Positions 1-18,654 of a stretch of 23,446 bases of DNA are shown here, one piece after another; positions within the stretch are counted from its first letter, which is position 1, and each line of letters starts with the position of its first letter. The DNA lies in the IMG/VR virus record IMGVR_UViG_2698536392_000022, positions 1-23,446 of that record; one strand, written 5' to 3'. The translations under genes were made by a program, and so were the position numbers. The DNA comes from a virus (lineage: Duplodnaviria; Heunggongvirae; Uroviricota; Caudoviricetes). The notes under the pieces are model-generated. The model made no database searches. It was not told the DNA's origin and worked only from the letters and a program-made list of their open reading frames with translations.

Positions 1-942
1 TTAAGTTAATTTTAATGAATGGTACTCTATCGAGCTGATTGTAGATGCGATATATTTACGATCATTTACAGAGAGTATTGCCGCTAGTAGACGACATACC
101 AGAGCCTGCATTTGTAGCAATATATCGCTACCATATTGACAATCATTGATACTAGAGAAACCAAGCGGTTGCCCATTAAAAATGGCTTCATGAAAATTAT
201 CATTGCGTATAACTGAAACATTACATTCATCTGTTGCCCATGACGGGATTTTTACACCGTAATTTTCGCACATCCAATATACTCTATTTTGATGAGATGG
301 TTTTTTCTCTTTAATGACTTTATCCCTTTCATCCCATGCTATAGCAAAACAGCAATCAAGAGCCATATAAAGATACTGGAATTTCTCAAAGGAAAGGTAT
401 AGTGGGTTATGTGATAGGAATAGGGAGTGTATCACCGCAGCTATTCTTTTAATGGAGCGATCATCTTTTTGTTTGTCTTTTATATAGTTAAGTGCTAGCT
501 CTATTACTTCTTTTTCAGAGCATCCAACGAGAATAAAGTCAGTTAACTTAGTGGGCTTGATAGTGGTTGCATCAAGAAAACCAGCGTCAGTGGTTGTCAA
601 TCTTATACCCTTGAAAAAAGAGAGGCACCACACAACAAAGTTGAGAGTTTCTAACGAGGATGTGTTTTTTAATTTTAGTGTGTGCGTTTTGGGCATGCCG
701 AATACTCGGTAACTATAAGGCATTGTGCATGTGTCACCATTAAGGTTATATACCTTTCGATTCCCAGGGTATATCCAACCATTAACAACGTTTTTATCAT
801 TGTTAATACGTTCCACTTTCTCAATAAGACCGGGTAAAGTACGCAAAGAAAATTGTTCAGTCTCAATGTTAACTTCTACTGGATAGTATCCAAACTCCGA
901 AATAATCTCATTTGGTTGCTGTTCATCAACTTCACCTTGCAT
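1..942 (-). CDS. Hypothetical protein, 313 aa, AT-rich cargo gene at the cos-proximal (old/tin-equivalent) position
   Basis: Complete ORF with ATG at 942..940 and stop at 3..1. GGAG Shine-Dalgarno 6 nt upstream on the minus strand. About 30% GC against about 52% in neighbouring phage genes. No family recognised by eye. Confidence 0.7.
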   Translation of the reverse strand: MQGEVDEQQPNEIISEFGYYPVEVNIETEQFSLRTLPGLIEKVERINNDKNVVNGWIYPGNRKVYNLNGDTCTMPYSYRVFGMPKTHTLKLKNTSSLETLNFVVWCLSFFKGIRLTTTDAGFLDATTIKPTKLTDFILVGCSEKEVIELALNYIKDKQKDDRSIKRIAAVIHSLFLSHNPLYLSFEKFQYLYMALDCCFAIAWDERDKVIKEKKPSHQNRVYWMCENYGVKIPSWATDECNVSVIRNDNFHEAIFNGQPLGFSSINDCQYGSDILLQMQALVCRLLAAILSVNDRKYIASTISSIEYHSLKLT

Positions 943-2403: not shown

Positions 2404-4175
2404 CAGTAAAACTCCAGAATGGTGGATGTCAGCGGGGTGCTGATACCGGCGGTGAGTGGCTCATTTAACAGGGCGTGCATGGTCGCCCAGGCGAGGTCGG
2501 CGTGGCTGGCTTCCTCGCTGCGGCTGGCCTCATAGGTGGCGCTGCGTCCGCTGCTGGTCATGGTCTTGCGGATAGCCATAAACGAGCTGGTGATGTCGGT
2601 GGCGCTGACGTCATATTCCAGACAGCCACGGCGGATGACGTCTTTTGCCTTGAGCACCATTGCGGTTTTCATTTCCGGCGTGTAGCGGATGTCGCGCGCG
2701 GCGGGATAGAACGAGCGCACGAGCTGGAACACGCCGACACCGAGGCCGGTGGCATCAATACCGATGTATTCGACGTTGTATTTTTCGGTGAGTTTGCGGA
2801 TGGATTCCGCCTGAGTGGCAAAGTCCATGCCTTTCCACTGGTGACGCTCAAGTATTCTGAATTTGCCACCGGCCACCACCGGCGGTGCCAGTACCACGCA
2901 TCCGGCGCTGTCTCCACGGTGTGACGGGTCGTAACCAATCCATACCGGACGTGAGCCGAACGGATTGGCGGCAAACGGCGCATAGTCTTCCCATTCTTCC
3001 AGCGTGTCGACCATGCAGCGTTGCAGTTCCTCGAACGGGAACACCGACGCCTTGTCGTCAACAAATTTACACATGAACAGGTTTTTAAAATCGTCGGCGC
3101 TGTTTTCACGTTTGAGCTGCTCAATGTCGAACAGCGTGCAGCCGCCTTTCAGGGCGTCCTCAATGGTGACAATCTGCCGCCACTGGCCGTCCGCACAGAG
3201 AAGCCCACCGGCAAGGGCGTTATGACTGACGTCGATTTCCACGCGTTCGGCGGCGCTGGCGCGTCCCCGGTTGAACAGTTCACCTGACCAGAACGGGTAG
3301 GCGTCGTGCGCCAGCGTGGACGGGGTGGAGAAATAGGTCGAACGCAGGTGACTCTGTGAGGCCATACCTGATGCCACCTTACGCAGTACCTGAAAATTCG
3401 GGATCCAGAAAATCTCGTCGACGTACAGGTCGCCGTTATGGCTCTGTGCGGTGTTGGAGTTGGTGCCGAGAAAAATCAGTTTTGCGCCGTTATTGCCCAG
3501 GACAATCGGGTCACCGGTCAGGTCAACGTCAACCAGACGGGCAAAGGCGATGATGTATTCGCGGAACACATACGCCTGCGTTTTACTGGCCGACAGAAAA
3601 ATCTGGTTATGGCCGGTTTTCAGGGCGCGCAGCAGCGCCTCGCGGGAAAAATAAAACGTTGCGCCAATCTGGCGGGATTTCAGGATATCGCGGATGCGGT
3701 GCTCAAGCCCGGCACGATACCAGTGCAACTGATAGTCGAAAGACTGCTCAAAGAAAATCTGCTCCAGCTTTTCGATGGCCTCGTCACTGAAAAAATTCTT
3801 TTTCGGTTTGCGACGCCCGCCTTTGTTGCGGTTAGCGACGTTCGGATTAAGGTCTGCCTCGTTGCCGGTCTGGCTGTAGCGGTTTACCCGTGCCAGTCGT
3901 TCAATCTGGCGTCCCAGCAGGTCAATTTCCTTGAAATCACCGCCGGTTTTCTGCGGTTTGATGATGATCTGGGTCAGCCGCGCTTCCAGACTCATTTCGA
4001 CACGGCTGATGGGGGCAACGCTGTCCCAGCCGTCGCGCTGTTTCCAGTTCTGCACCGTCGGGCGTTTCATCTGCAACATGGCGGCAATCTGCGGCACGGA
4101 AAACCCCTGCCAGTACAGCAGCGCCGCCTGACGAGGCGGGTCGTGTAAAAGAGTGGTGTCTGTGGTGATGGTCAT
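2403..4175 (-). CDS. P: Terminase large (ATPase) subunit (P2 gpP-like), 590 aa
   Basis: Start set at the ATG at 4175..4173 (MTITTDTTLLHD...), which matches my recollection of the P2 gpP N-terminus. The ORF-track start 30 nt upstream is a TTG. Confidence 0.92.
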   Translation of the reverse strand: MTITTDTTLLHDPPRQAALLYWQGFSVPQIAAMLQMKRPTVQNWKQRDGWDSVAPISRVEMSLEARLTQIIIKPQKTGGDFKEIDLLGRQIERLARVNRYSQTGNEADLNPNVANRNKGGRRKPKKNFFSDEAIEKLEQIFFEQSFDYQLHWYRAGLEHRIRDILKSRQIGATFYFSREALLRALKTGHNQIFLSASKTQAYVFREYIIAFARLVDVDLTGDPIVLGNNGAKLIFLGTNSNTAQSHNGDLYVDEIFWIPNFQVLRKVASGMASQSHLRSTYFSTPSTLAHDAYPFWSGELFNRGRASAAERVEIDVSHNALAGGLLCADGQWRQIVTIEDALKGGCTLFDIEQLKRENSADDFKNLFMCKFVDDKASVFPFEELQRCMVDTLEEWEDYAPFAANPFGSRPVWIGYDPSHRGDSAGCVVLAPPVVAGGKFRILERHQWKGMDFATQAESIRKLTEKYNVEYIGIDATGLGVGVFQLVRSFYPAARDIRYTPEMKTAMVLKAKDVIRRGCLEYDVSATDITSSFMAIRKTMTSSGRSATYEASRSEEASHADLAWATMHALLNEPLTAGISTPLTSTILEFY

Positions 4176-10626: not shown

Positions 10627-11412
10627 TTATGAGTGGTTTTTATTTGATGATTTGTATTCTACAACTTTTTTATTGGCGTAAAGGAATTTTGTATATGACA
10701 GAAGTATAACCAGACCTGAAGTGAAATAGACGAGGGATATTATTAATAATGTTTTTCTGTGGCTGTTATTATCTTTAATCTCCTGACTTAACCATTCGGA
10801 GTCCTCCTCGTTTAGCTGTAAGAGCTTATTGCAGGCGATTGCAGGAAGTGTGTCTGTTACAAAAGTGTTCTGCAGTCTCTTGCAATCGGCAATGCTAAAA
10901 GCTTTATAGAACTTATCTGTTTTATTGTCGGAGAACAAAAGAACCTTGTCATTATAAACATGGTACATCATATTTTTATATGGTATGGCTATGGCATCCT
11001 CTACTATGGCAGATTGCTCGTTGTGTATGCAACATGCGAAGGTAATATAAAGAATTCCGGCCAGGACTGCACTCATTGTTTTTGTGATGCATGGCGGTTC
11101 TGTTATGTCTCCCCAGAAGCGAGTAAGGAAAAAATCCGATGTTTTTAGTTTTCCATCAATCAACCCCTGCTGTATCATTTTCACATCTTTGATGCCTGAT
11201 ACATTGATTCCGTTAATTATTTTAAATAGTTGAATGTCGCGCCACTCGCGGTCCAGTCTTTTTAATTTTTTATCTGAATATCCAAATTTGAAATAATGTG
11301 CAATAAGCCTCATAAGGTTACTTTTACCAAAGCTAAAAAATGCTAATACTACAAAGACCAAAAGATACAAGACGATTAGCTCCCACACATTAGTCACATT
11401 ATAGCTGACCAT
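10627..11412 (-). CDS. Hypothetical membrane protein at the P2 orf30 position, 261 aa from the ATG start, antisense to the late operons
   Basis: ATG at 11412..11410 with a strong AAGGAG Shine-Dalgarno 6 nt upstream on the minus strand. The longer ORF-track form starts at a TTG. AT-rich. Hydrophobic segments near both termini. Confidence 0.7.
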   Translation of the reverse strand: MVSYNVTNVWELIVLYLLVFVVLAFFSFGKSNLMRLIAHYFKFGYSDKKLKRLDREWRDIQLFKIINGINVSGIKDVKMIQQGLIDGKLKTSDFFLTRFWGDITEPPCITKTMSAVLAGILYITFACCIHNEQSAIVEDAIAIPYKNMMYHVYNDKVLLFSDNKTDKFYKAFSIADCKRLQNTFVTDTLPAIACNKLLQLNEEDSEWLSQEIKDNNSHRKTLLIISLVYFTSGLVILLSYTKFLYANKKVVEYKSSNKNHS

Positions 11413-11495
11413 TACGCTCTCCTTGAATGTTGTCTGGTGGTTCTGCAAATGAATCCAGATAGCATAACTTTTATATATTGTGCAATCTCACATGC

Positions 11496-13921: not shown

Positions 13922-16240
13922 ATGAGCACAAAATTCAGAACCGTTATCACCACTGCCGGTGCAGCAAAGCTGGCAGCGGCAACCGCACCGGGAGGGCGGA
14001 AGGTCAACATTACCACGATGGCCGTCGGGGATGGCGGTGGTAAATTGCCTGTCCCGGATGCCGGACAGACCGGGCTTATCCACGAAGTCTGGCGACATGC
14101 GCTGAACAAAATCAGTCAGGACAAACGAAACAGTAATTATATTATCGCAGAGCTGGTTATTCCGCCGGAGGTGGGCGGTTTCTGGATGCGTGAGCTTGGC
14201 CTGTACGATGATGCGGGAACGTTAATTGCCGTGGCGAACATGGCCGAAAGTTATAAGCCAGCTCTTGCCGAAGGCTCAGGGCGTTCGCAGACCTGCCGCA
14301 TGGTCATCATCGTCAGCAGTGTGGCCTCAGTGGATCTGACCATTGACACTACAACGGTGATGGCAACGCAGGATTACGTTGATGACAAAATTGCAGAGCA
14401 CGAACAGTCACGACGTCACCCGGACGCCTCGCTGACCGCAAAAGGTTTTACTCAGTTAAGCAGTGCGACCAACAGCACGTCTGAAACACTGGCCGCAACG
14501 CCGAAAGCGGTAAAGGCCGCCTATGACCTTGCTAACGGGAAATATACTGCGCAGGATGCCACCACGGCGCGAAAAGGCCTTGTTCAGCTCAGTAGTGTGA
14601 CCAACAGCACGTCTGAAACGCTCGCCGCAACGCCGAAAGCGGTAAAGGCAGCATATGACCTTGCTAACGGGAAATACACTGCACAGGACGCCACCACCGC
14701 GCGAAAAGGCCTTGTTCAGCTCAGTAGCGCCACCAACAGCGATTCTGAAACGCTTGCGGCAACACCAAAGGCGGTTAAGACAGCGTATGACCTTGCTAAC
14801 GGGAAATACACTGCACAGGATGCCACCACTGCGCGAAAAGGTCTTGTCCAGCTCAGTAGCGCCACCAACAGTGATTCTGAAACCCTCGCGGCAACGCCAA
14901 AAGCAGTGAAGTCTGCCTATGACAATGCTGAAAAACGTCTTCAGAAAGATCAGAACGGTGCGGATATTCCGGGAAAGGATACCTTTACGAAAAATATCGG
15001 TGCCTGTCGTGCTTATAGCGGCGCTTTGAGCACTGAAGCCGGAAACTGGACAACCGCTCAGTTTATTGAATGGCTGGATTCCCGTGGTGCATTTAATCAT
15101 CCGTACTGGATGTGCAAAGGCTCCTGGTCATATGCAAATAACAAAATCATTACGGATACCGGATGTGGTGATATCCACCTGGCTGGTTGTGTAGTCGAGG
15201 TCATGGGAACTAAATCTGCAATCACTATCCGAGTGACCACGCCGACAACATCAAGCGGTGGCGGTACAACCAGCGCACAATTCACTTACATTAATCATGG
15301 GGACGGCTACTCCCCCGGCTGGCGTCGTGACTGGAATCGTCAGGGCGACTCAATGACCGGAACGATTAATCAGGATGGCGGAAGCCAGAATGCCTATATG
15401 TCTACGGCCTTATGTTCAGGCACCAGAGGCGGCAAAAAATATCTCAGAAAGTTTCGTGGTGGAGAAGGAGATACTATCTGGCATGAAACAGTTCAGGGCG
15501 GGGTAGTTCGCTGGGCGACTGGTAATACTGATACTCAGGAAGAATTATCACTCAGCTCCGCTTATGGTCTCCGTTCAAGAGGTGAGATTACATCACTCAG
15601 TGCTAATGGTCTGCGCATCGCTTATGGCAATTATGGATTCTTTATCAGGAATGATGGCGGCAGCACATATTTAATGCTGACGGCCTCTGGCGATAAATTT
15701 GGGACATGGAACGGCTTAAGACCGCTGACTATCAATAACGCCAATGGCGGAGTGTCAATGGGGCATGGCCTGAGTGTTACAGGTGATATTGTCTCAAGTA
15801 CCAAAGTACGTGCCGGTAGCGGGAAAAAGTTCACGGTCAGCAGCAGCAATACATCCACGAAGGAAGCCGCATTCAATTTGTGGGGAAACTCAAGTCGTCC
15901 TGTGGTGGCTGAATTAGGTGATGATGCAGGCTGGCATTTTTACAGTCAGAGAAATACAGATAACAGCATCACTTTTGCTGTTAACGGGCAGGTATCACCA
16001 TCTAATTATAGTAATTTTGATTCACGCTATGTCCGGGATATCCGGCTTGGTGGTGCTGCCACATACAAACCTGCGAACAATGGCATGACATGGACACATC
16101 AGGCACCGTCCGGGTGTGTATATTCCGGCATTATTGTTCAGGATACCGGCTCAAACTCTGCCGATAACATTGGTGGCGTATATTACAGACCGGTTCAGAA
16201 ATACATTAACGGGACATGGTACAACGTGGCGCAGGTATAA
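13922..16240 (+). CDS. H: Tail fibre protein (P2 gpH-like), 772 aa, with internal tandem repeats
   Basis: N-terminus MSTKFRTVITTAGAAKLAAATAPG... is gpH-like and the C-terminal end ...YINGTWYNVAQV is fibre-like. Longer than P2 gpH (669 aa as I recall) because of extra 44-aa repeats. Confidence 0.92.
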   Translation: MSTKFRTVITTAGAAKLAAATAPGGRKVNITTMAVGDGGGKLPVPDAGQTGLIHEVWRHALNKISQDKRNSNYIIAELVIPPEVGGFWMRELGLYDDAGTLIAVANMAESYKPALAEGSGRSQTCRMVIIVSSVASVDLTIDTTTVMATQDYVDDKIAEHEQSRRHPDASLTAKGFTQLSSATNSTSETLAATPKAVKAAYDLANGKYTAQDATTARKGLVQLSSVTNSTSETLAATPKAVKAAYDLANGKYTAQDATTARKGLVQLSSATNSDSETLAATPKAVKTAYDLANGKYTAQDATTARKGLVQLSSATNSDSETLAATPKAVKSAYDNAEKRLQKDQNGADIPGKDTFTKNIGACRAYSGALSTEAGNWTTAQFIEWLDSRGAFNHPYWMCKGSWSYANNKIITDTGCGDIHLAGCVVEVMGTKSAITIRVTTPTTSSGGGTTSAQFTYINHGDGYSPGWRRDWNRQGDSMTGTINQDGGSQNAYMSTALCSGTRGGKKYLRKFRGGEGDTIWHETVQGGVVRWATGNTDTQEELSLSSAYGLRSRGEITSLSANGLRIAYGNYGFFIRNDGGSTYLMLTASGDKFGTWNGLRPLTINNANGGVSMGHGLSVTGDIVSSTKVRAGSGKKFTVSSSNTSTKEAAFNLWGNSSRPVVAELGDDAGWHFYSQRNTDNSITFAVNGQVSPSNYSNFDSRYVRDIRLGGAATYKPANNGMTWTHQAPSGCVYSGIIVQDTGSNSADNIGGVYYRPVQKYINGTWYNVAQV
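14441..14925 (+). repeat. In-frame tandem repeat in H, period 132 bp (44 aa), about 3.7 copies
   Basis: Units start at 14441, 14573, 14705 and 14837 and encode KG(F/L)(T/V)QLSS(A/V)TNS(T/D)SETLAATPKAVKxAYDLANGKYTAQDATTAR. Copies differ at a few mostly synonymous or conservative positions. Confidence 0.88.
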
Positions 16241-16243
16241 TTT

Positions 16244-16771
16244 ATGCAGCATTTGATAAATATAACGGTGGGTAATCCAAAAACAGTTGAACAATATCAA
16301 TTGACAAAGGACTTTGATGTCGTCTGGTTTTTTACAGAAGATGGTAAGAACTGGTACGAAGAACAAAAGTATTTTGCTGATGACACGATAAAAATAGCGT
16401 ACGACAAAGATAATATCATCCGCTATGTGGAAAAGGATGTGACAGCTATCAGACCGGATGGATTAAGTGTTGTTGAAGTGGCGGATATTACTGCTAACCG
16501 ACGGGCGGACATTTCAGGGAACTGGATGTTTAAGGACGGCAAAGTGATTAAACGCATTTATACGGCAGAGGAATTACAGCAGCAGGCAGAAATTCGGAAA
16601 GCCAGACTTCTTGCAGATGCTGAATCCGTGATTTTGCCGCTGGAGCGCGCTGTCAGGTTGAACATGGCAACAGAGGAGGAGCGCACACGGCTGGAGGCTT
16701 GGGAACGCTACAGCGTTGTGGTCAGTCGTGTGGATCCTGCAAATCCTGAATGGCCGGAAATGCCGCAATAA
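16244..16771 (+). CDS. G: Tail fibre assembly chaperone (P2 gpG-like), 175 aa
   Basis: 175 aa immediately downstream of H. Length and position as P2 gpG. Confidence 0.88.
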
Positions 16772-16957
16772 GTTGTATGAACTCTGGTGTGAGCTTACAT
16801 ATCTATGGCACAGAGTAAAGCCTAATCTGACAGTCCGCTCTGTGCCAGGAGCGGAAGTTGCCAAGAGAACTCTTGCAAAGGTATGATAACGTAGGTGCTA
16901 AATAATCATGAACCATAATAAATTAAAGGTTTTTAAGTTAACTCTATGGCGTTTCTT

Positions 16958-16986
16958 TTGCATGATGATTTTTTATTTATTATATA
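16958..16986 (+). promoter_or_regulatory. Candidate sigma-70 promoter for the Z/fun-locus cargo gene
   Basis: TTGCAT (16958..16963), a 17-nt spacer, then TATATA (16981..16986), inside an AT-rich leader about 65 nt upstream of the ATG at 17053. Confidence 0.35.
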
Positions 16987-17052
16987 AAGCTTAAATATAC
17001 ATAATATTTAGCTTCATTTTTTTAGGTATTTTAAAGATTTAGAGGAATGTGA

Positions 17053-18396
17053 ATGGCTACTTATGCTTCTTATTTACCAGAATCACAAATTATCACTTTG
17101 TGCAAGGATTTCCCAGCGTTTACTGATCCTGAAAAATTAGATGGATTCATTAATCCAGAACAGTTTGGCGTGTTTTTTCATGAGTGGATTCATTTTCTTC
17201 ACAATATTTCCACAATTAATGGGTTTTCTATTTTTTGCACGCAAAACATCCTGTGGTCTAATTTTCGCTGGGCAATGGACAATCAGGATGTATGTCTTGG
17301 TTCAAATGACATGGATCCAGCACATATCGAATCAAACAAAAATTTTCTCAGTTACATTCGTTCCAATAGGAGTCTGCATAAATGTAACTTACCTTATTAT
17401 GTAAAAGTAAACGACTTGTATTTTGAGGATGCAATAATCCATGACATGGAGGTTGCTGACGGTAGTGTTATATGTACATCATTAATAAAGTGTAGAATTT
17501 CTCATTCTGAAAACAAATACGATCTAGATTTAGGCGTGCTTGAAATACTTGAATCCGCAGCTTTTATGCTTGAATGTAAGTGTATTAATGCGATGAATGG
17601 CTTCCCTCAAGAGGCACCCTTTTATCCGTATCATACTATCAAAGGCTTAGCAGCGAAAATTGCTCCGTCATTAAATGATGAAGATATTATTTGTTGTATG
17701 TTAGCTTCTTTGCAATCTAATAACCCTCCCCAAGTATTATTCAATCTACTACATAAATGTGAATTATTACATTCTGATTGTAGGTATGAACATCTAGTGG
17801 CGGAGGTGAAAAAACAATTAAGCGAACAAGATCAAATAATAAGCGAGTCACTTAATCAAATAATTCAAATGATTCCTGTTGATGAACCGATGGGAAACTT
17901 TATCAAGCTTACTCTTAACAGAATAAGTAACAATTTGAACTATAGAAAGCAAAAACCGTTTTTTGAGTTAGATATAATAAAAAAAATAGCAGAAAAAACT
18001 GAGTTTATGAATGAAGTAATACAGAAATTCGGTGGTTGCACTATCATCCAGGTAAGACATGGAGATGATAATGAACCACAGCGTGATATTATGTATGACT
18101 TTTGCTTACCTGAAAATAATGATTCAATTTTATTTGGTTCGAAAATGCTACGCGCTTGTTTTCACTTTATATTTATTCACTTTAAACTTTCTGGTGAAAT
18201 CATGAAGACAGAAGAATTAAATATTTCGCCGCGTAATAAATGCCCATTTTATACTGTTTGCTGTGCATCAATTCGAGCTAATAATAGTAATATCTGCGCT
18301 GAATCCCCTTGGAAATCAATGTCTATTGATGACAACAAAGGTTGTTATTATGCAGCAGCGATTAAAGCTACTAACCCACCAGTTTTGCCGGATTAA
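17053..18396 (+). CDS. Hypothetical protein, 447 aa, cysteine-rich with HExxH motif, cargo gene at the Z/fun-equivalent position
   Basis: ATG at 17053 preceded by AGAGGA Shine-Dalgarno with a 6-nt spacer. About 33% GC. 20 Cys residues. HEWIH at residues 43..47 (nt 17179..17193) with a further His at residue 50. No signal peptide. Followed by an intrinsic terminator. Confidence 0.8.
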   Translation: MATYASYLPESQIITLCKDFPAFTDPEKLDGFINPEQFGVFFHEWIHFLHNISTINGFSIFCTQNILWSNFRWAMDNQDVCLGSNDMDPAHIESNKNFLSYIRSNRSLHKCNLPYYVKVNDLYFEDAIIHDMEVADGSVICTSLIKCRISHSENKYDLDLGVLEILESAAFMLECKCINAMNGFPQEAPFYPYHTIKGLAAKIAPSLNDEDIICCMLASLQSNNPPQVLFNLLHKCELLHSDCRYEHLVAEVKKQLSEQDQIISESLNQIIQMIPVDEPMGNFIKLTLNRISNNLNYRKQKPFFELDIIKKIAEKTEFMNEVIQKFGGCTIIQVRHGDDNEPQRDIMYDFCLPENNDSILFGSKMLRACFHFIFIHFKLSGEIMKTEELNISPRNKCPFYTVCCASIRANNSNICAESPWKSMSIDDNKGCYYAAAIKATNPPVLPD

Positions 18397-18531
18397 GAAT
18401 AGTGTTCTTTCTGATAAATATAAAATATTTAAGGTCAGGTCTGCTTATCGCTCAAAGCAGACTGTCAGATTTGATAACGTTTGGGCTATGTAAACCGTCA
18501 GTTGGAAAATGAGTGAGTGCAAGTCAGGACA

Positions 18532-18558
18532 GGCGGGCGGATTGCCCGCCTTTTCTTT
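18532..18558 (+). terminator. Rho-independent terminator downstream of the 447-aa cargo gene
   Basis: Stem ggcgggc / gcccgcc (18532..18538 and 18544..18550), 5-nt loop, then TTTTCTTT (18551..18558). Confidence 0.6.
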
Positions 18559-18654
18559 ATCTGTTGTTTCATCCACTGACCAGCCAGGTCAAATAGCGCC
18601 TCATGCTCTGCACAACAGAAAATAGTTGCACCCATTAACCACGGAGTTAAACGG

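Follow-up and report, generated by a model that had tools for sequence, protein, structure and literature searches.

A mobile cassette in the P2 Z/fun hotspot carries a candidate single-gene anti-phage protein with HExxH and four-cysteine motifs

Both the slot between the tail-fibre assembly gene G and the sheath gene FI of P2-like prophages and the general idea of variable defence cargo in a P2 hotspot are already known. Vassallo et al. (2022) described the fun locus as a second P2 defence hotspot, with three of their validated systems (PMC9519451); the one studied by Rousset et al. (2022; PMC9122126) is the old/tin locus. Here we analysed a 23,446-nucleotide stretch of DNA (IMG/VR virus record IMGVR_UViG_2698536392_000022, positions 1 to 23,446; the window), which is the late region of a P2-like prophage of Escherichia coli, and in it a gene for a 447-amino-acid protein that an original prediction, made from the letters alone, had put forward as a candidate for anti-phage defence. 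Like P2 Fun(Z) and other Z/fun cargo, this gene is AT-rich lysogenic-conversion cargo in the G-FI slot and is accompanied by the same inverted-repeat elements. In contrast, Fun(Z) has 528 amino acids, is encoded on the opposite strand in P2 and is unrelated in sequence; the suggestion that the 447-amino-acid protein might be a Fun homologue did not survive comparison with NP_046777.1 (BLASTP best E 1.9, 10-residue fragments only). Nor is the protein among the systems listed by PADLOC. We consider the gene a strong candidate for a new single-gene defence family, because its relatives sit beside known phage-defence genes in many bacteria, and we give a probability of about one half to the reading that it encodes a stand-alone gluzincin-like zinc hydrolase with a four-cysteine (Cys4) metal module, acting against phage in a Lit-like manner from a Z/fun cassette.

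The open reading frame (ORF; 17053..18396, plus strand; WP_000257039.1, PHROG 15354) lies, as predicted, between G (16244..16771, 175 amino acids) on its 5' side and FI (18655..19845, 396 amino acids) on its 3' side. The annotation of an identical stretch in E. coli 2013C-4830 (NZ_CP027325) agrees, with a tail fiber assembly protein followed by the hypothetical protein WP_000257039.1 and the tail sheath. We compared G-FI intervals across complete E. coli genomes. The complete 1883-bp interval is present at 99.8% identity or more in 12 genomes, and a thirteenth, strain H3, holds 87% of it at 99.6%. By comparison, the G/FI flanks alone occur in 1324 genomes, where other cargo includes a restriction endonuclease, SMEK, DUF4145 and an HTH gene plus an acetyltransferase, and the 447-amino-acid cargo occupies approximately 1% of P2 G-FI junctions. 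Location and varying content are thus those of the variable Z/fun hotspot named in the original prediction, in agreement with the published hotspot. Neither the DNA nor any protein relative was found among 50,697 phage genome records, including by tblastn. A further example comes from an IMG/VR P2-like viral contig with an inverted tail operon, in which a 24%-identical family member (L019, 9917..11305) directly follows the tail-fibre and tail-fibre-assembly (Caudo_TAP) genes and faces the GpU, tape-measure, tube and sheath genes. Here a distant relative has independently filled the same G-FI-type junction.

Relatives of the protein are numerous and widespread. A word-indexed search returned 36 full-length relatives from Sodalis, Serratia, Enterobacter, Aeromonas, Rheinheimera and metagenomes, and an exhaustive profile search returned 1028 representative clusters at E<=1e-3 (275 at E<=1e-30), nearly all of them 440-540 amino acids long and matched end to end. 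Scans of genomes and plasmids added Sideroxydans, Paraburkholderia, Pseudomonas, Cupriavidus, Rhodoferax, Azovibrio, Burkholderia, Phaeobacter, Piscinibacter and Odoribacter, and a profile scan of genome contigs with a narrower alignment gave 11 loci. Three homologues, 85%, 75% and 62% identical, gave ratios of nonsynonymous to synonymous substitution (dN/dS) of 0.35, 0.22 and 0.14, respectively, indicating that the gene is under purifying selection. Because the relatives are full-length (36 close, 1028 distant) and dN/dS lies between 0.14 and 0.35, the ORF is a real gene and not a chance reading frame. Its GC content is constant at 34% in loci of 42-49% GC. The sole library match of the protein is PHROG 15354, to which no function is assigned; no match was found in Pfam, NCBIfam or PADLOC-DB v2.0.0 (0 of 5027 models), in agreement with the original prediction, which recognised no named defence family in it, and 37 diverse relatives searched against Pfam, NCBIfam and PADLOC gave nothing consistent. 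Sequence and profile searches of the PDB yielded coiled-coil noise only, a protein-name search with the broad profile gave 'hypothetical protein' only, and literature searches found no description of WP_000257039 or phrog_15354, nor of such an HExxH defence protein. In the libraries and literature searched, the family, its fold and its combination of motifs are undescribed. A separate PHROG family of 129 amino acids, phrog_36473, corresponds exactly to residues 319-447 of the protein; it probably reflects truncated gene calls and not an independent domain family.

The genomic surroundings of the relatives link the family to defence. In a plain count, a known defence gene lies no more than about 3 kb away at 13 or more of approximately 24 independent loci, in unrelated genomes. 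These neighbours include PD-T7-1 (L020, adjacent), a retron-type reverse transcriptase (RT) with an OLD-like ATPase and E1-E2/JAB (L022), PDC-S39 (L024), Shedu SduA with a PDC-M54A-like gene (L025), a pAgo PIWI protein with a nuclease (L026), LmuA with PDC-S71 (L028), IetA/IetS in Odoribacter (L030) and HNH_2 on contig L038. Beside an Enterobacter relative lie Lamassu-like genes and an RT/ATPase, and a Sodalis relative, carried in an integrative and conjugative element (ICE), adjoins HEPN ApeA. Three metagenome contigs have, respectively, Gabija, RES and HsdR; PARIS-like genes and type I restriction-modification; and GmrSD. Further copies travel as cargo on ICEs, on Tn7-like elements, on plasmids and on an integrative element beside fis. 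All-against-all clustering of 18 diverse loci found no neighbour family common to the relatives, so the gene works without a dedicated partner; no conserved partner gene of the kind found in toxin-antitoxin or other multi-gene operons was seen at these loci. Together with the published hotspot, the strong association with defence genes in unrelated bacteria upholds the gene as a candidate for anti-phage defence.

Conservation was examined in 167 full-length sequences down to 19% identity. The protein is acidic, has a single HEWIH motif at residues 43-47, no hydrophobic segment (maximum KD19 1.37) and no signal peptide, and the predicted total of 20 cysteines was confirmed by count. The HExxH motif (codons at 17179..17193, plus strand; helix 35-53), which we propose to be metal-binding and catalytic, is conserved at 98%, with H43, E44 and H47 each present in 165 of the 167 sequences; the third histidine that the original prediction had attached to it, H50, is found in only 71% (119/167). 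Six residues are conserved in all sequences: Y193, R298 and the four cysteines C397, C403, C415 and C431. The latter form the Cys4 module (18241..18345, plus strand; each 167/167) around P419-W420, which are 99% conserved. E167 (codon 17551..17553, plus strand; helix 162-180) is likewise 99% conserved (166/167) and is followed at +3 by A170 (93%); N51 and P192 are at 98%, H376 at 97% and C329 at 90%. Only four of the 20 cysteines are thus invariant, and the other 16 are not conserved, with C329 alone coming close. The conservation, 93-100% at H43, E44, H47, N51, E167, A170, Y193, R298, H376 and the four cysteines, resembles that of an enzyme.

An AlphaFold2 model built with a 36-sequence alignment reached a mean predicted local distance difference test (pLDDT) of 92.3 and a predicted template modelling score (pTM) of 0.92. 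In the model an N-terminal beta-hairpin leads into the HExxH helix (35-53) and two further helices, after which come a meander of five strands (123-160), helix 162-180 with E164, E167, A170 and E174, an eight-helix bundle (195-326), and a C-terminal part of short helices around the four cysteines. The Cys4 region has high pLDDT despite little regular secondary structure. Comparison of the model with the PDB and BFVD returned no structural relative.

The gluzincin pattern combines HExxH with a Tyr, a His and an invariant Glu that lies downstream and has a small residue at +3. Gluzincins of the thermolysin, M1, M13 and M48 type have in common with the 447-amino-acid protein an HExxH on a helix and such a Glu further on, on another helix; the gluzincin-like Tyr and His are also invariant in the family and could stabilise a transition state. 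It is these three features (HExxH, the downstream Glu and the Tyr/His pair) that lead us to a gluzincin-like reading. A metzincin (HExxHxxGxxH/D with a Met-turn) was considered and rejected, as the sequence HEWIHFLHNIST lacks a Gly at +3 and H50 is variable. In the mechanism we propose, the cassette would encode one cytoplasmic, soluble 51-kDa enzyme of a widespread family, transcribed in the lysogen from the gene's own leader. A catalytic metal would be held by H43 and H47 of the HExxH helix and by E167 of the later helix as putative third ligand, with E44 as general base and Y193, R298 and H376 as additional active-site residues. The conservation of the four cysteines suggests a second metal centre, structural or sensing, in the C-terminal module, which might hold Zn or an Fe-S cluster. 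The single protein would act as both sensor and effector, staying inactive until triggered by a foreign infecting phage, and would then cleave a host or phage protein so that infection is blocked, as by the e14 prophage peptidase Lit.

Several results weigh against this interpretation. Peptidase families in Pfam, NCBIfam and PADLOC gave no match, and a zincin fold was not recognised by structure comparison. Direct alignments to candidate relatives stayed at noise level: hhalign gave a probability of 0.16% against Lit, with no Lit match in Pfam or PADLOC at E<=10, and with the M48 peptidase YcaL it aligned the HExxH only. E167 lies 120 residues past H47, further than in characterised gluzincins. 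Some relatives are in ordinary chromosomal surroundings with no defence gene near, and promoter-like sites are not enriched (6 found versus 8.0 expected from shuffles). Given that no zincin fold or family is recognised and that the His-to-Glu spacing is unusually long, a serious rival is a defence gene whose product is not a peptidase. Such a protein, whether enzyme or sensor, would depend on a metal and have nucleic acid or a small molecule as its target; an Fe-S-containing DNA- or RNA-binding hydrolase is one example. We regard this as the best of the alternatives, if a rather doubtful one.

Less likely still is an accessory gene of lysogenic conversion outside defence, either a host-modulating cytoplasmic protease or a virulence factor like the secreted HExxH effectors NleC and NleD. 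P2 hotspots do hold cargo unrelated to defence, cytolethal distending toxin and partition systems among it (PMC9122126), the carrier strains include Shiga toxin-producing, enterotoxigenic and avian pathogenic E. coli, and two Aeromonas relatives lie amid housekeeping genes. However, the protein has no signal peptide, Pfam gives no match to effector peptidase families, and relatives come from environmental Beta-, Gamma- and Alphaproteobacteria and from Odoribacter, usually beside defence genes. It is these neighbourhoods that make roles outside defence less likely.

The gene belongs to a mobile unit with defined ends. In the lambdoid prophage of E. coli H3, positions 16833..18463 are present at 99.6% identity between DUF977/BCCT/DUF2254 and hokD, and contig L038 contains a copy of approximately 91% nucleotide identity whose boundaries agree within 5 bp. 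From the H3 breakpoints and the shared boundaries it follows that the mobile unit is a 1.63-kb cassette (plus strand) of leader, ORF and 66-bp trailer. Beyond the P2-like prophage, gene and leader recur in a lambdoid prophage and a third context, consistent with the description of a self-contained cargo gene. The left cassette-end element, GTCCGCTCTGTGCCAGGAGCGGAAGT (16833..16858, plus strand), begins with 10-12 nucleotides that are the inverted repeat of the right end, and the right element, GTCTGCTTATCGCTCAAAGCAGAC (18439..18462, plus strand), forms a hairpin with an 8-bp stem. The unit terminates in GTCYGCTYTGTGCCARGAGCRGAAGT at its left side and GTCYGCTYWTCGCTCAAAGCRGRC at its right; the outermost 10-12 nucleotides of these two ends are mutually inverted repeats, and an imperfect inverted repeat extends across the backbone flanks (16824-16855 versus 18440-18471). 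The P2-EC67 record AJ512685 annotates these repeats as left and right inverted repeats.

The same elements are found around other genes. In the KFu019 lambdoid prophage a different three-gene cargo lies between the same two end elements, in H3 a second left-type element divides two tandem cassettes, and the elements that bound Z/fun cargo also bound other cargo at the lambdoid locus between DUF977 and hokD. The hairpin/inverted-repeat elements (window 16802..16858 and 18439..18462) recur at 328, 4001 and 5607 of L041 and at 2052 and 5385 of L045. The left element (63 nucleotides) matches at 3525 sites, spread over 2718 of 5426 E. coli genomes, and thus occurs in a larger number of genomes than the P2 G/FI flanks (1324). 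The end elements look like a shared cassette-junction signal, and their sharing with the lambdoid hotspot hints at how hotspots exchange cargo. A comparison with empty sites had appeared to show clean insertion without target duplication in lambdoid prophages; this was rejected because what adjoins the site is itself a copy of the right-end element, at the border of other cargo. In E. coli BL21(DE3) a chromosomal copy of the left-element hairpin (TGGCACAGAG...CTCTGTGCCA) is located downstream of nanQ (L046, 3001..3060), where its neighbours are a DUF1016 fragment and an ORF of 101 amino acids with the annotation 'transposase'; at 78% and E 8e-4 this is a weak match, and the common part is the hairpin only.

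A discrete cassette with inverted-repeat ends that moves among prophages, ICEs, Tn7-like elements and plasmids, and whose gene is intact inside a defective prophage with a split tape measure gene, might also be expected of a selfish stabilisation or toxin module, or of a factor for inter-element competition or counter-defence, that benefits the cassette or prophage itself. We find this improbable: none of the 18 loci shows an antitoxin-like partner or other conserved neighbour, counter-defence genes are usually small and early, and chromosomal co-location with defence systems favours defence. The gene has the orientation of the tail-fibre and tail-sheath genes between which it lies, but its distribution (few P2 junctions, no phage record, relatives in non-phage contexts) rules out a conserved P2 tail component, whether structural or for assembly.

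The limits of the insert and its expression signals differ in part from the original prediction. The predicted AT-rich insert of about 1.9 kb is indeed AT-rich, with GC of 0.30-0.37 over 16850..18500 against 0.52-0.61 on either side, but alignment with the P2-EC67 Z-region record, a P2 isolate and reference P2 showed that only about 16861..18435 (1.58 kb) varies, the remainder (16772..16860 and about 18436..18654) being conserved P2 backbone. GC content is 35.2% over 16772-18654 and 32.6% when only the part that truly varies is counted, against 53.6% in the remaining window. The left backbone segment (16772..16860, plus strand) runs from the G stop codon to the cargo, and is near-identical to P2-EC67 and the P2 isolate as far as about 16860, beyond which the sequences part; within the segment lies a long-stem hairpin (16802..16850; -19.3 kcal/mol, z -2.35). 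On the right, the predicted terminator is real and strong (18531..18551 or, more widely delimited, 18531..18561, plus strand; 9-bp stem with 7 GC and a T-run; -20.1 kcal/mol, z -3.9). The cargo does not bring this terminator along: it is P2 backbone, conserved in P2-EC67, the P2 isolate and reference P2, and shared by P2 phages whose cargo differs. Next to it, from activator-binding site to transcription start, lies the P2 late promoter pF for FI-FII-E-T-U-D (about 18562..18631, plus strand), placed by alignment to the annotated features of NC_001895. Since both terminator and F-operon promoter are in the backbone, they serve whichever cargo is present. An Rfam search of the window gave no match.

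As to the cargo's own promoter, the letters of the proposed TTGCAT-17-TATATA are present (16958..16986, plus strand); they agree with consensus at only 3/6 and 4/6 positions, and a consensus scan did not report them. The best sigma-70-like match in that scan is TTGCCA-18-TATGAT (16858..16887, plus strand; 10/12), within the leader that travels with the gene. As the TTGCAT-17-TATATA match is weak and such sites are not enriched, the cargo promoter is a candidate only. The Shine-Dalgarno sequence GAGG (17042..17045, plus strand) ends 7 nucleotides before the ATG, and L038 and L041 conserve it. The start codon is preceded and overlapped by ATG TGA ATG (17047..17055), a minimal start-stop unit that L038 (an 85%-identical relative) and the H3 copy also have; the unit may serve translational coupling or regulation, or may be due to chance.

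Elsewhere in the window, the tape measure gene is split into two ORFs (20853..21503 and 21516..22664), and the identical prophage in NZ_CP027325 has an annotated internal stop, a truncated gpD-like gene and an adjoining IS2. The prophage is probably defective while the cargo gene is intact. In the tail-fibre gene H a 132-bp (44-amino-acid) unit is repeated 3.5 times in tandem with 88% identity (14468..14923); in strain 2013C-4830 this gene is annotated as frameshifted. Two more AT-rich islands (GC 0.36-0.40) hold one ORF each on the minus strand, of 313 amino acids (1..942) and 273 amino acids (10627..11448); one island is beside the portal gene, on the old/tin hotspot side, and the other between a virion-morphogenesis gene and the baseplate gene V. 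As neither ORF has a Pfam or PADLOC match, the prophage carries three orphan cargo genes.

Taken at its broadest, the cassette could represent a new and widespread single-protein immune family with a fold absent from the PDB, combining a zincin-like centre with a Cys4 (possibly Fe-S) sensor, on a promoter-plus-gene unit of a previously unappreciated type, whose hairpin/inverted-repeat ends are common to the Z/fun and lambdoid (DUF977-hokD) hotspots; we advance this wider proposal only tentatively. If validated as a defence gene, the 447-amino-acid gene would add a single-gene anti-phage family of more than 1000 representative clusters in Proteobacteria and Bacteroidota, in which a metallohydrolase is joined to a Cys4 centre, a chemistry rare among known systems, on a fold without a solved relative. 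It is easy to test, since a single gene is involved and the residues to mutate are clear (H43, E44, H47, E167 and the four cysteines). The cassette ends shared by P2-like and lambdoid prophages could likewise make cargo-swap recombination, a question from recent P2/P4 hotspot work, directly testable, and would, if the proposal is true, be a concrete sequence basis for cargo swapping in prophage defence hotspots.

Among described HExxH proteins of bacterial immune loci, CapP and ImmA-IrrE (M78) are, like the proposed hydrolase, HExxH peptidases. They are, however, regulators paired with a repressor, whereas the 447-amino-acid gene is partnerless and its product has no M78 or CapP match. Nearest in proposed function is Lit, the cell-death peptidase (Peptidase U49) from the cryptic prophage e14. 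Lit, which a phage product activates and which cleaves EF-Tu, is smaller (297 amino acids) and is without a Cys4 module, but like the 447-amino-acid protein it is a cytoplasmic HExxH protein encoded by a single prophage gene with no partner gene. By analogy, we propose Lit as the functional counterpart of the 447-amino-acid protein, which would then be a latent metallopeptidase switched on by an infecting phage.

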